Origin: Vulcanimicrobiales bacterium | Lineage (GTDB): Bacteria; Vulcanimicrobiota; Vulcanimicrobiia; Vulcanimicrobiales; Vulcanimicrobiaceae | Direction: 5' to 3' | NCBI GenBank assembly: GCA_038231455.1 | Contig: JBBRLI010000003.1 | Location: 148,917 to 212,916, forward strand | Length of the DNA: 64,000 nucleotides | Notes under the pieces: model-generated | The model's input: the letters and a program-made list of their open reading frames with translations, nothing else | Told to the model about the DNA's origin: nothing | The model's database searches: none | In this document: piece after piece, positions 31,971 through 56,096 of the stretch | Position numbering within the stretch: the stretch's first letter is position 1 | Layout of the letters: the number at the start of each line of letters is the position of its first letter | Made by a program: the position numbers and the translations under genes

Positions 31971-32047
<77 letters not shown>

Positions 32048-52771: not shown

Positions 52772-53684
52772 CGCGCGTGCATTGATCTCGATCGGCACGA
52801 ACTCGACGCGGCTCTTAGTCGCCGAGATCGCACCCGGCGGGATCGCTCCGCTCGCGCACGATTCACGCGGCACGCGCCTGGGCGCAAACCTGCGCGAATC
52901 GGGGCCGCTCGACCCACAAGCACGCGACCGCACCCTCGAGGCGATCGATGCCTACGTCGTCGTCGCAAAACGGTACGACGCGCAGATCTCCGTCATTGCA
53001 ACGAGCGCGATGCGTCGCGCATCGGACGGGGCTGCCTTTGCGGCGGAGATCGCCGAACATACCGGCGCAGCACCGCTGGTGCTCGACGGGAATGAAGAAG
53101 CGACGTATTCATTTCTCGGTGCGACGGCAGCGTTTGCCGATGCGCGCGACCTGGTCGTGGGCGTGCTCGATGTCGGAGGCGGCAGTACCGAGTACGCAAG
53201 CGACGTCCCGTCGAGCGCGCGCGGTACGTTAGCAACGACGATGTCGCTCGAAATCGGTGCGGTGCGTTTGGCGGAAGCCGTCCCCGAACTTCTCGGCGGC
53301 GCAGCCCTCGATACTGGCGCACGAGCAGATGCAATCGCGCGCGCACGCGCGCACGCCGATGCCATTCTCGCGCCGCTTGCCGCCCAGTCCGCGCCCGAAC
53401 GATTGCTCGCCGTCGGCGGCACGGTCGTCACCGCGGGCCTCATGCTGCACGGTCACGGCGACGGCGCGACGCTCACGGGTTTCGAACGTCGGCAACTCAT
53501 CGACGATTTACTCGCGCGTACGCTTGCCGAGCGGATCGAAATGCCGGGGATCCGTCCGCAGCGCGCCGACATCTTACCCGCGGGCCTCATCATTGTCGAT
53601 GCCGCTGCCGCCGCGCTGCGCTGCGATGCCATGACGATCAGCCTGAGCGATTTGCTCGCCGGATATTTACGCGCGACGTCGTAG
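52767..53684 (+). CDS. Short Ppx/GppA-family phosphatase
   Basis: IGTNSTRLL, TRLG, ATSAMR, EEA, DVGGGSTE, RADILPAG; start ATT 52767 or TTG 52782. Confidence 0.88.
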   Translation: MSARALISIGTNSTRLLVAEIAPGGIAPLAHDSRGTRLGANLRESGPLDPQARDRTLEAIDAYVVVAKRYDAQISVIATSAMRRASDGAAFAAEIAEHTGAAPLVLDGNEEATYSFLGATAAFADARDLVVGVLDVGGGSTEYASDVPSSARGTLATTMSLEIGAVRLAEAVPELLGGAALDTGARADAIARARAHADAILAPLAAQSAPERLLAVGGTVVTAGLMLHGHGDGATLTGFERRQLIDDLLARTLAERIEMPGIRPQRADILPAGLIIVDAAAAALRCDAMTISLSDLLAGYLRATS

Positions 53685-53722
53685 AAACGGATTGCCCGTC
53701 CCTTGCGGACCGAGCCCATCGT

Positions 53723-54050
53723 GGGATGATGGTGGAACTGGTAGACACAGCAGACTTCATTTGGAGCCGATCGCCCGGAAACGACGATCGGGATGCGCTC
53801 AAAGTCGGTGAACTCTTCCGCGGCAGTGATGTCGCCTGACGACGCCGAGCCAAGCGCGCCGCGAAAGCGGCGCGAAGGTGTAGAGACTGGACGGGCGCGA
53901 CCTACCCGGCCCCGAGTGCGAACTCGGGCCGCACGGTCAAGGCACAGTCCGGACCATCAAACGCGCGTTTGCGCGGTGGCGAAAGCCATAGTGGTGCGAA
54001 AATTTGCCGCCCGCGAGGGCGTCCGAGTTCGATTCTCGGTCATCCCACCA
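53723..54050 (+). tRNA. tRNA-Leu(TAA), intron-containing (exons 53723-53757 and 53999-54050; 87 nt spliced)
   Basis: Acceptor stem GGGATGA/TCATCCC+ACCA, D-arm GGTGGAACTGGTAGACAC, anticodon arm GCAGA-CTT^AAAA-TTTGC, long variable arm GCCC-GCGA-GGGC, T-arm CCGAG-TTCGATT-CTCGG. Confidence 0.95.
53758..53998 (+). ncRNA. Group I self-splicing intron (IC3-like), 241 nt, no ORF
   Basis: 5' splice site after U with U-G pair in P1 (CUU^C/GGAG), terminal G, P3 GCGCTC/GGGCGC, P7 GAGACT/AGTCC, P/Q/R/S-like cores, GNRA loops. Confidence 0.93.
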
Positions 54051-54134
54051 TTTCTGTAACCGCTCCGTATAAGGACCCTCGGCTTCGGTATCGAACCAAG
54101 CGTGCGACTAGCGCCTTCATACAATGGTGGTTAT

Positions 54135-56096
54135 ATGGTATTAGCGTCTGCCGGACGGCTGTCCTTAGCCGTAGCGTTTTTCTGTGCGGTGGCAACATTT
54201 GCAAACGCCGAGGACTCGTATCAGCCAAGCGATCTCATCGTGGCTGTCGTGCCCAAAGCATCGCCGAGTCCGGGCCCATCGCCCTCCGCCGGCCCGACCA
54301 AAGCGCCCAAGCGCTTTACGATCCATGGCGACGGCTATCTCAACGCCATCAATCAGCAGATGAAGGGCGAGGGGCTCAAACCTCCCGAGGGCCCGGCCTT
54401 TGCCGCGGGCAGCGTGATCGCGCCGAACAGTCCGTATGACTTGTTTTCCGGTGCGCCGCTGGGTTCGGGATTCGGCTTCCATCAGGCTCTCAAGATTTCG
54501 GCAGTGTACTCCCTCTCCAAGAACGTGGATTTCACCGCGCTCGTCGGCTACGGTTCCGTGAGCGGCAATGCGAACACCGCGGGGTATTGGGGCAATCAAT
54601 TGATGCCCACGCTCAACGCGCATTTGGGGTATCGCTCGGCAGCACTGCCGGTCGGGTTCGACACACATAACGCGCAGAATACGACGCAAGCCTCGCGTAT
54701 CTCCGTGCTCGAGGGAACGCTCATCACGCACGACGGCAATTCGGGTCTGCGCGCCGGATACTTCGATCTGCGTCAGACGAACAAGTTCGTGTTCCAGAGC
54801 GCGCCGCAATCGAACTCTCCCGCCTCGCTTGCGCCGGTGCTGCCGGAATCGCTTGGCGACGGCGCACCGCTAATGGATGCGATGGCGCCGTTCTCGACGA
54901 CGCTTCCCTTACACGGGATCGACGGTTTCACCAAAATCAAAGACGCAACGCTCGAATTTAGCGATGCAGAATTACCGGCACTCCCCGGGACACACGCGCG
55001 CGTGCGCACCGGCTCGGTCTTCATCGATCGAGGCCCCGGCACGAAGTTCTCGCTGCAATACGCGCACGTGAACGAAGGCGGCGACACGATCGGTACGACG
55101 ACCCTCTTCGGCGGCAATCCCACCGTCGTCGGTTCGTTTCAAGGACTCTTGCCCTTCTCGACCCTCGGCGCGCAGCGCCAGACGATCGTTGGTGGTTCGG
55201 CGCAATTCCCGCTGCCCAATGCATTCGATGCGCTCCTCGAATACAGCGTCTCGAGCTACTCGGCCGATGGCGTCGCAACGCCGGCAACCTCAAACGTTCG
55301 CGGCACGTATGCCCACGGTCAGTTGCGGCGCGGCTTTGGACCCTTCGAGCTTGCGCTCGATGGGTATCGTTTCGATCCGCATTACGCAACGACGATTCTT
55401 CCGTACGGCACGCTCGAAAACGTGTGGAGCTCCGCCTACTCGTGGCCAGGCCCTTGGCTCAAAGGCAACTACCAACTCGTCGACAACACGGCCGTCGGCG
55501 TGAATCGCCAAGGTTTCCGTCTCAAGGGCATCTCGGCGTTTGGCAAATCTGAAGTGCGTGTGTCCTACGCGCAGTTCGATCAAATCAGTCCCCTGAATGC
55601 CGCAAACGGCTTATCGACGGGCTTCGTCGAGGGGTATTATCTGCCGCAGCTCACGTCTGCCGGCACGACGCTCGGCCATCAGAAGCAGTACGCGGCGTAC
55701 GTTGCTTTGCATCCATCGTGGGGTGATGTGACCTTCGACTTCACCGATGACACGCAGCATCGCGATGCGACGCGCGGCAATCCGCAGGAAGCCGTCTCGA
55801 TCGACTATCCCGCGTACGTGTTCACGGTCTCGCGTCAGCTCAACCCGCGCTTGCTCGGAGCACTCGGCTACGCGCGCTACGCGACGAACGGGTCCTTTAG
55901 CAACAGCGGCGCGAACAACGCCGAAACCGATCAGCGCGTGTACTTCATCGGCGGACAGTTCTCCAAAGACGGCAAGAACGCGTACCATCTGCAATACCGC
56001 TACTACGTAAACAACGGCTTGCCGAACATCCCCGGAGCCGACGGCCCGCAATTCCACGGCGGCCAGTTCATCCTGGAGCAACGCTTCCACCTATAA
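54135..56096 (+). CDS. Secreted protein, probable outer-membrane beta-barrel of unknown family
   Basis: Signal peptide, Pro/Ser linker (PKASPSPGPSPS), alternating aromatic strands, C-terminus FILEQRFHL. Confidence 0.7.
   Translation: MVLASAGRLSLAVAFFCAVATFANAEDSYQPSDLIVAVVPKASPSPGPSPSAGPTKAPKRFTIHGDGYLNAINQQMKGEGLKPPEGPAFAAGSVIAPNSPYDLFSGAPLGSGFGFHQALKISAVYSLSKNVDFTALVGYGSVSGNANTAGYWGNQLMPTLNAHLGYRSAALPVGFDTHNAQNTTQASRISVLEGTLITHDGNSGLRAGYFDLRQTNKFVFQSAPQSNSPASLAPVLPESLGDGAPLMDAMAPFSTTLPLHGIDGFTKIKDATLEFSDAELPALPGTHARVRTGSVFIDRGPGTKFSLQYAHVNEGGDTIGTTTLFGGNPTVVGSFQGLLPFSTLGAQRQTIVGGSAQFPLPNAFDALLEYSVSSYSADGVATPATSNVRGTYAHGQLRRGFGPFELALDGYRFDPHYATTILPYGTLENVWSSAYSWPGPWLKGNYQLVDNTAVGVNRQGFRLKGISAFGKSEVRVSYAQFDQISPLNAANGLSTGFVEGYYLPQLTSAGTTLGHQKQYAAYVALHPSWGDVTFDFTDDTQHRDATRGNPQEAVSIDYPAYVFTVSRQLNPRLLGALGYARYATNGSFSNSGANNAETDQRVYFIGGQFSKDGKNAYHLQYRYYVNNGLPNIPGADGPQFHGGQFILEQRFHL

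Follow-up and report, generated by a model that had tools for sequence, protein, structure and literature searches.

Split tRNA-Leu(UAA) halves lie on the forward strand at 53723–54050 of the window, by which is meant the whole stretch of 64,000 nt that was analysed, and are called by ARAGORN as a single tRNA-Leu(taa) gene when introns are allowed. In this mode, the mature tRNA-Leu(UAA) is 87 nt long, belongs to class II and has its CCA encoded, and the intron of 241 nt sits between gene positions 35 and 36 (..GACTT, intron, AAAAT..), which bears out the earlier note on this DNA, made from the letters alone, in its reading of two halves separated by 241 nt that join into an 87-nt class II tRNA. 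The insertion point is that between U34 and A35, with the same junction in 24 of 24 homologues, so that the placement at the classical site of tRNA-Leu(UAA), also claimed in the earlier note, is confirmed by both ARAGORN and the comparison. The coordinates are collected in Table 1; the helices P1, P2, P3, P6a, P7, P8 and P9 and the joining segment J3/4 are all in the sequence where the earlier note had placed them.

Table 1. Features of the split tRNA-Leu(UAA) gene and its surroundings (alignments A1 and A2 and model R1 are described in the text; helix numbers are those of the pair count)
Feature	Position	Strand	Remarks
RpiR-type regulator gene, then Ppx/GppA phosphatase gene, upstream	latter ends at 53684	+	
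tRNA-Leu(UAA) exon 1	53723–53757	+	acceptor 5′ strand, D arm, anticodon-stem 5′ strand, C32 U33 U34
P1	53755–53766	+	exon CUU and first intron base (53755–53758) with GGAG (53763–53766)
Group I intron, IC3-type, 241 nt, without ORF	53758–53998	+	ARAGORN, A1, RNAalifold, pair count, R1
P2 hairpin, GAAA loop invariant	53767–53791	+	helices 5–6: 6/9 pairs compensatory
P3 5′ strand	53795–53800	+	pairs with 53893–53898; invariant in 24 homologues
J3/4 AAA	53801–53803	+	directly after P3 5′ strand
P4	53805–53810 with 53843–53848 (53805–53848)	+	encloses P5/P5a; helix 8
P5/P5a	about 53814–53839	+	helix 9: P5 6/7 pairs compensatory
P6	CC 53850–53851 with GG 53877–53878 (domain 53850–53878)	+	helix 10
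P6a hairpin, GAAA loop	53855–53874	+	helix 11: 5/5 pairs compensatory
P7 5′ strand GAGACU, bulged A	53883–53888	+	invariant in 24/24 (A1) and 38/38 (A2)
P3 3′ strand	53893–53898	+	pair counts in A1 and A2
P8	53899–53938	+	internal loop and distal hairpin, GCGA loop; helices 13–14: 5/8 pairs compensatory
J8/7 AAGGCAC and P7 3′ strand AGUCC (53946–53950)	53939–53950	+	invariant block in A1
P9 domain	53953–53998	+	P9 is 53953–53957 with 53991–53995; helices 15–16
P9a hairpin	53962–53975	+	
P9b hairpin, GAAA loop	53976–53989	+	
tRNA-Leu(UAA) exon 2	53999–54050	+	A35 A36, anticodon-stem 3′ strand, long variable arm, T arm, acceptor 3′ strand, encoded CCA
Terminator-like hairpin (54155–54172) and T run	54155–54181	+	consensus scan: 1 found, 0.7 expected from shuffles
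664-aa ORF without Pfam match	downstream		
ETF beta and alpha, TPR protein, deacetylase, redoxin	further downstream		

The setting is an ordinary chromosomal context. No homing-endonuclease ORF is found in the intron, which at 241 nt is too small to hold one, or beside it, where RpiR, Ppx/GppA, ETF, TPR and deacetylase genes lie. The six downstream ORFs and the two upstream genes that were scanned include no integrase, and the window contains no second copy of the tRNA 3′ end with up to 3 mismatches; a genomic island at the tRNA was considered and set aside, there being neither a repeat of the tRNA end nor an integrase. The hairpin that follows the tRNA by about 105 nt is a possible, if weak, candidate for the end of the transcript.

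When 61 genomes related to that of the window were searched with BLAST, the split gene was found in full length 24 times (counting the window), with 69–95% identity to the window's copy, and two more copies are cut or rearranged; in several genomes the exon matches abut, i.e., the gene is uninterrupted. The 24 homologues were aligned over 383 columns (alignment A1). Their introns span 206–254 nt, which places the intron of the window, taken in the earlier note for a possibly new compact ribozyme, among the longer members of its clade; it is no new compact form. The core blocks are invariant in A1, and the tips of P2, P5, P6a, P8 and P9a vary in both length and letters; the exon columns are conserved, and the tRNA stems covary (pair count, helices 1–3, 17 and 18). 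RNAalifold, applied to A1, recovered P1, P2, P4, P5, P6a, P8 and P9b, with 35 of 85 pairs compensatory; as this program draws no pseudoknot, the full structure was written out with the P3/P7 pseudoknot and the tRNA stems. In this proposed structure, 98.4% of 2024 pair cells hold a standard pair, against 34–40% when the partners are slid by 1–3 columns, and both partners change in 36 of the 85 pairs, against 7–18 in the slid controls; none of 500 shuffles reached the observed pairing values. The structure is far beyond chance, and every helix of a group I core is present, with the P3–P8 and P4–P6 domains joined through the P3/P7 pseudoknot, much as the earlier note had maintained in describing the core as complete. 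The energy of the single-sequence fold likewise lies below that of shuffled sequences, by 3.4 standard deviations (z-score −3.4).

The letters around the splice sites are among the most constant. The U.G wobble at the 5′ splice site (53757 with 53764; columns 35 and 49 of A1) and the C-G and U-A pairs of P1 are each present in 24 of 24 homologues, the fourth pair of P1 is variable, with five changes on both sides, and the last base of the intron, the omega G, is invariant in all 24. A candidate P10, between the U's of L1 and the A's of exon 2, has an invariant exon-2 side and a UU just 5′ of the guide sequence in 16 of the 24. P3, P7 and five of the six P4 pairs never vary in A1, so that support for their pairing has to come from the wider family and from sequence identity. 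For this, 38 introns from other phyla, none of them from the clade of the window, were aligned (alignment A2). All six P3 pairs change on both sides in A2, where 98.7% of the P3 cells pair; P7, presumed from group I biology to be the guanosine-binding helix, is the same throughout, and its backing is identity alone.

From A2, a covariance model of 148 positions and 26 pairs was built (model R1), the seeds of which are tRNA-Ile2, tRNA-Arg and tRNA-Leu introns from phyla other than Eremiobacterota, 18 of the 38 being of the Azoarcus type. R1 matches 53791–53951 from its first position to its last (1–148 of 148) with 95.4 bits and an E value of 1.1e-24; no mispair was flagged, the stretch from J8/7 into the P7 3′ strand included. 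The intron is thereby homologous to the classical bacterial tRNA introns of subgroup IC3. This is the sole match in the 64,000-nt window, the window's genome gave one other, at E 0.97, and no second intron was found there by R1. The other 37 “introns” that ARAGORN called in the genome were without R1 support and were taken as the usual false positives of the program.

The earlier note had proposed a search with covariance models, which R1 answered in favor of the intron; with Infernal and Rfam, which it had named, the group I model RF00028 had no match to the intron even at E ≤ 10. Neither the scan of the window at Rfam gathering scores nor that of 53500–54300 (801 nt) at E ≤ 10 gave a group I match, and RF00028, whose gathering score is 50 bits, had no match when run across the whole genome. 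Five weak Rfam matches at E ≤ 10 (Xoo1, Xoo8, snoRNAs and a Brucella sRNA hairpin) were put down to chance or to the P6a hairpin. In a control search, RF00028 did match two cyanobacterial-type introns (L244, 74.2 bits; L212, 73.3 bits), a tRNA-Ile intron of Rhodocyclaceae (L095, 54.8 bits) and, in part, the tRNA-Leu intron of Burkholderia lata (L088, 31.8 bits), with no match at E ≤ 10 on the window's locus (L001) or another Eremiobacterota copy (L005). Because the controls match, the miss is a property of the model for the Eremiobacterota clade, and it was read as a limit of the model and not of the intron. Williams (2020, bioRxiv 10.1101/2020.01.27.920355) counted no bacterial sequence among the 12 seeds of RF00028 and offers a bacterial tRNA-intron model.

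The gene is also passed over by default ARAGORN, for which the tRNA-Met at 31971–32047 is the only tRNA in the window and by which the split tRNA-Leu(UAA) gene was not found there; the suspicion of the earlier note that standard annotation misses it was thus well founded, for default ARAGORN and RF00028 alike. According to a passage of the tRNAscan-SE 2.0 paper (PMC8450103), introns of this kind lie outside what the program was designed for. Vulcanimicrobiota genomes will consequently get annotated as being without tRNA-Leu(UAA), a gap that touches completeness checks and inferences from codon usage, and surveys that are based on RF00028 will under-count the Eremiobacterota clade.

The earlier note had regarded an intron at this site as out of the ordinary for a bacterium other than a cyanobacterium. 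Two core motifs (from the P4 3′ strand through P6, and from J6/7 through P7), sought in one genome per species, gave at least 120 loci, in 106 of which ARAGORN parsed a split tRNA. At least 58 of these have the tRNA-Leu(UAA) junction (CTT, an intron ending in G, AAAA): at least 32 are labelled Pseudomonadota (Burkholderia, Paraburkholderia, Mycoavidus, Comamonadaceae and others), at least 20 Vulcanimicrobiota or Eremiobacteraeota, at least three Bdellovibrionota, at least two Acidobacteriota or Acidoferrum and at least one Bacillota, and the rest of the parsed loci listed are tRNA(CAU) (at least 30), tRNA-Arg(CCU) (at least four) and assorted others. Williams (2020) had already surveyed 80413 bacterial genomes, in which 5292 split tRNA genes came to light, with introns of this kind in many phyla, and distinguished four classical types, Leu.3Ug, Arg.5Ug, fMet.2Ug and Ile2.5Ug, all of them IC3; the subgroup label of the intron described here is taken from that work and not computed. 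With so many split tRNA-Leu(UAA) genes, at least 32 of them in Pseudomonadota, and with Leu.3Ug among the classical types, the idea that the intron is new or unusual outside Cyanobacteria is not supported. The literature search turned up no paper pairing “group I intron” with Eremiobacterota, Vulcanimicrobiota or WPS-2, though the phylum table of Williams (2020) may list the phylum, and an excerpt of the paper on Vulcanimicrobium alpinus gives 54 tRNA genes and does not contain the word intron. The element is of a known class, for its phylum the search found no description of it, and the understanding of how such introns work is unchanged by the finding.

Three groups of introns come closest. 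The cyanobacterial tRNA-Leu(UAA) intron lies in the same gene at the same insertion point (CUU, AAAA), has the U.G at the 5′ splice site, the terminal G and the same helix plan with a GAAA-capped P2, and in its cyanobacterial-type forms (n=11) scores 80–108 bits with R1, a range that includes the intron of the window; in contrast to the Eremiobacterota introns, those of the cyanobacterial type are matched by RF00028 (73–74 bits), and in the MAFFT tree described below the cyanobacterial/plastid type forms its own clade (100/100) apart from all others. The letters at the P4–P6 junction of the window's intron, unlike those of the cyanobacterial intron, are of the proteobacterial type, which is why the motif scan found proteobacterial introns and not those of cyanobacteria. 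Azoarcus itself carries an intron of the tRNA-Ile2(CAU) type. The Azoarcus-type introns of Betaproteobacteria (IC3, “Ile2.5Ug”), for which loci of Rhodocyclaceae, Comamonadaceae and Polynucleobacter were used, are letter-for-letter identical to the window's intron in the core blocks of the scan pattern, and R1, with 18 of its 38 seeds of this type, matches the latter from end to end, but they interrupt a different tRNA at a site after the anticodon, have the guide sequence GUG, are shorter (190–223 nt) and differ in the letters of P3, with compensation. The tRNA-Leu(UAA) introns of Burkholderia, Paraburkholderia, Comamonadaceae and Bdellovibrionales, finally, have the gene and the junction in common with the window's intron, but belong to other clades of the intron tree and differ in the letters of P3 and P2, those of Burkholderiaceae grouping nearer to tRNA-Ile and tRNA-Arg introns. 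A report of 2002 in J. Bacteriol. is said to have described a tRNA-Leu(UAA) intron in a gamma-proteobacterium.

The host is a member of the Vulcanimicrobiota (Eremiobacterota) and not of the Cyanobacteria, as the earlier note had supposed in calling it non-cyanobacterial: a locus (L018) from genome G013, which is placed in the family of the window's genome, shows 100% identity with a Vulcanimicrobiota locus (L120) over all of its 3290 nt, and the nearest named relatives of the intron come from Vulcanimicrobiaceae, Elarobacter, Tumulicola, Cybelea and bins of “Candidatus Eremiobacteraeota”. In a sample of 251 genomes of the phylum, 149 matched the query of exons and intron; 97 of the 251 matched into the intron, all of them, by a count of the rows listed, in two families (89 in f1, counting the window's genome, and 8 of 18 in f3), and 52 of the 149 matched in the exons only. 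R1 was applied to 151 genomes of the phylum and matched 46, namely 36 of 71 in family f1, plus the window's genome, 6 of 9 in f3 and the single genome in each of f7, f9 and f14, with 0 of 19 in f6 and 0 of 16 in f20; the matches outside f1 and f3, together with second matches in two f3 genomes, represent introns in tRNAs other than tRNA-Leu (an initiator-type tRNA(CAU), tRNA-Tyr and tRNA-Asn). Presence and absence occur even within one genus: of the 14 genomes of g25, nine match into the intron and five in the exons only, the exon matches abutting in one of the five.

The tRNA-Leu introns of Eremiobacterota form one clade (99 SH-aLRT in one tree, 99/94 in another), and the intron tree largely follows the host family: the family label changes twice on the tree of the 24 homologues, against a mean of 7.5 when shuffled, with none of 500 shuffles as low. 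One f1 intron, that of genome G007, groups among the rows of f3. The simplest reading would be that the intron is older than the families f1 and f3, was inherited with the host and was precisely lost many times, which would make it, within the phylum, a mostly vertically inherited passenger. Unpublished genomes are included in these counts (G009 as one row, L012, of A1 and the trees, G250 as one of the 97, and G020, G205, G262 and G059 among the exon-only or weak matches), and no claim depends solely on them. The clade amounts to a GC-rich lineage of IC3 ribozymes, of which the phylum sample contains about a hundred natural variants, and the intron-bearing and intronless alleles within single genera suit studies of intron loss and of the sequence tolerance of the ribozyme.

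Whether the host needs the intron to be removed can be asked of its genome, an assembly of 3.71 Mb in 106 contigs that is 93.7% complete. Default ARAGORN finds 46 tRNA genes in it, including those for Leu with the anticodons caa, cag, gag and tag, and none for Leu taa besides the split gene was found by ARAGORN. The codon TTA makes up 2.8% of the leucine codons in 276 long ORFs and is present in 231 of them. With TTA in use and a sole tRNA-Leu(UAA) gene to read it, removal of the intron would be required for decoding UUA, provided that the missing 6% of the genome contains no second gene.

The element is very probably a functional IC3 group I intron of the classical “Leu.3Ug” type in the sole tRNA-Leu(UAA) gene of a Vulcanimicrobiota bacterium. 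The precursor would fold such that the exon C-U-U pairs with the guide G-A-G to form P1 and the U.G wobble marks the cut site, and a free guanosine bound in P7 would then attack after U34. The terminal G (53998) would next take over the place of the guanosine, and the freed 3′-OH of U34 would attack after G53998, resulting in the joining of U34 to A35 and in the release of an 87-nt tRNA precursor and a linear intron. Because P10 is weak, it is probably the tRNA's own anticodon stem that holds the exons together.

Sequencing runs were searched for the locus as well, and one DNA run, perhaps from the source sample, contained the full query and many runs about a fifth of its words. Four RNA or RNA-labelled runs were compared, all as contigs. 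Two of these, X18 and X19, which stem from one sample, gave one contig each (360 and 286 nt), in which a relative's intron-bearing gene is covered in full, with 16 differing letters and 14 gaps; these contigs of the unspliced relative testify to the gene's presence in an RNA library rather than to its transcription. The joint of the two exons (53757 to 53999) occurs in one contig of run X15, the upstream sequence of which is unlike that of the window; it was rejected as spliced RNA, the unlike flanks pointing to an intronless allele of another organism. In run X20, exon 1 ends loosely in exon-2-like sequence, again with unlike flanks, and this was read as the intronless gene of some other organism. 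The contigs of the four RNA-labelled runs support splicing neither one way nor the other.

It could be argued from these contigs, which show only the unspliced relative and intronless alleles, and from the failure of the Rfam model to recognize the intron, that the gene is dead, its intron having lost the ability to splice and no tRNA being produced. This is highly improbable, as the gene is the only one found for tRNA-Leu(UAA) in a genome that uses TTA in 231 of 276 long ORFs, its exons are intact and covarying, and the compensatory changes in 36 pairs across genomes that are 69–95% identical amount to long-lasting selection on the fold. A genuine intron might also be unable to splice autonomously in the cell and, like most plastid trnL introns, depend on a protein of the host, for instance an RNA chaperone or a cofactor resembling a tRNA synthetase. 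To our knowledge, land-plant trnL introns do not self-splice in vitro, which was counted in favor of this alternative, as were the weak P10 and the free variation in length of the peripheral helices P5, P6a, P8 and P9a. It is nonetheless unlikely: P3, P4, P6, P7, J3/4, J6/7, J8/7, the U.G and the terminal G are kept without exception, and the GAAA loops in L2 and L9b in nearly all 24 sequences, a pattern that is that of the self-splicing bacterial IC3 introns rather than of the degenerate plastid ones, and introns of the plant-plastid type score 37–55 bits with R1 as against 95 bits here.

The intron also poses the question of its origin, and the phylum of its host is placed within the kingdom Bacillati in the NCBI taxonomy. 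Thirty cyanobacterial- or plastid-type tRNA-Leu introns were taken from metagenome contigs via an exon motif for comparison, so that the sampling is biased, the non-cyanobacterial loci having been picked through motifs that the window also has, and the cyanobacterial ones through their exon. In a MAFFT tree of 139 introns, the cyanobacterial/plastid clade received 100/100 and the backbone among the others was weak. Constraining the Eremiobacterota introns to group with the cyanobacterial/plastid ones gave a tree 5.9 lnL units better than the free search (p-AU 0.59), a single clade of all tRNA-Leu introns gave a p-AU of 0.50, and grouping Eremiobacterota with the tRNA-Ile introns was 33.5 lnL units worse (p-AU 0.15), the groups having been named after the first tree was seen. 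In a model-fitted core alignment of 137 columns, the Eremiobacterota clade was joined instead by three introns of Gemmatimonadales (99/99), and the union with the cyanobacterial introns was 41 lnL units worse (p-AU 0.092). With none of the three groupings rejected, the data lack the power to settle the deep origin, and the ancestral and lateral readings, between which the earlier note had left the choice, are both compatible with the AU tests. That the Eremiobacterota and cyanobacterial/plastid tRNA-Leu introns go back to one insertion before the split of two Terrabacterial (Bacillati) phyla is rather doubtful; if true, the “ancient chloroplast intron” would predate the Cyanobacteria and have survived by vertical inheritance in a second phylum. 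A recent lateral transfer into the lineage, e.g., from Pseudomonadota or Gemmatimonadota, of an intron that is not old in the phylum is a little less likely still. It would fit the patchy presence, as in g25, the placement of the G007 intron with family f3, the two contigs labelled Acidobacteriota that fall inside the Eremiobacterota clade and the nearest outside relatives, namely, in two of three trees, Gemmatimonadales introns that interrupt other tRNAs. Against it stand the single, well-supported clade of all Eremiobacterota tRNA-Leu introns, which spans two host families and largely follows them, and surroundings free of an endonuclease gene, an integrase or a repeat of the tRNA end; the window's intron, moreover, is 95% identical to that of a congener and 69–78% identical to the rest, as expected under descent with the host.

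The Rfam model of the group I intron, RF00028, matched two cyanobacterial-type introns (L212 and L244) and the intron of a Rhodocyclaceae tRNA-Ile gene (L095), all above the gathering score, and it also matched the tRNA-Leu intron of Burkholderia lata (L088), but below that score. Applied to two Eremiobacterota introns, that of the window (L001) and another copy from the phylum (L005), the same model gave no match at E<=10.

Contigs from two sequencing runs labelled RNA, X18 and X19, bear on the intron-bearing tRNA-Leu gene itself. These contigs, of 360 and 286 nt, come from metatranscriptome libraries of one ice-metagenome sample, and they cover the entire gene of a relative and little besides, with 16 other letters and 14 gaps relative to the corresponding part of the window (see the table). 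They could represent precursor RNA, although assembled contigs are unable to demonstrate this.

Directly 3′ of the tRNA lies an ORF of 664 aa, for which a Pfam search returned no match. The true start of this ORF is probably later than the one listed, because the listed start is located upstream of a terminator-like hairpin.

Coordinates of the features described here
Feature	Sequence	Position	Strand
664-aa ORF	window	54102-56096	+
Terminator-like hairpin	window	54155-54172	
Region covered by the X18 and X19 contigs	window	53723-54047	
Rearranged copy L026	G008:C69	1500-1830	minus

In the rearranged copy L026, the tRNA-Leu(UAA) gene is without interruption, and approximately 76 nt past this intact gene are found the last 160 nt of the intron (the 3′ part of P6 through P9), together with a second copy of exon 2. 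The arrangement resembles a trace left by recombination, or by an insertion in which an intron-bearing gene had its 5′ part replaced.

The tRNA-Leu introns of two contigs, L043 and L144, fall within the Eremiobacterota clade in the intron trees, and their source records are Candidatus Acidoferrum sp. and Candidatus Acidiferrales bacterium, i.e., bins labelled Acidobacteriota. This placement reflects a genuine transfer or, alternatively, Eremiobacterota DNA that was assigned to the wrong bin. The closest relatives outside the clade, in two of the three trees, are L066 and the introns L064 and L111, the latter two from one record, a single Gemmatimonadales genome whose two related introns interrupt separate tRNA genes, identified by ARAGORN as Lys(ctt) and Asn(gtt). 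In L125, from Gammaproteobacteria bacterium AqS3, the tRNA-Leu(UAA) intron as placed by ARAGORN is shifted by one base toward the 5′ side of the loop (..ACT / intron / TAAAAT..), and this intron forms a long branch in the trees.

Further tRNA genes of the phylum contain IC3-type introns as well (L159 in genome G049, L160 in G044, L161 in G066, L162 in G072 and L163 in G064), the split genes being those of an initiator-type tRNA(CAU), tRNA-Tyr(GUA) and tRNA-Asn(GUU). In G066, the intron of the initiator-type tRNA(CAU) is 206 nt long; in two genomes of the host family f3, both of which carry the tRNA-Leu intron too, it measures 306-312 nt.
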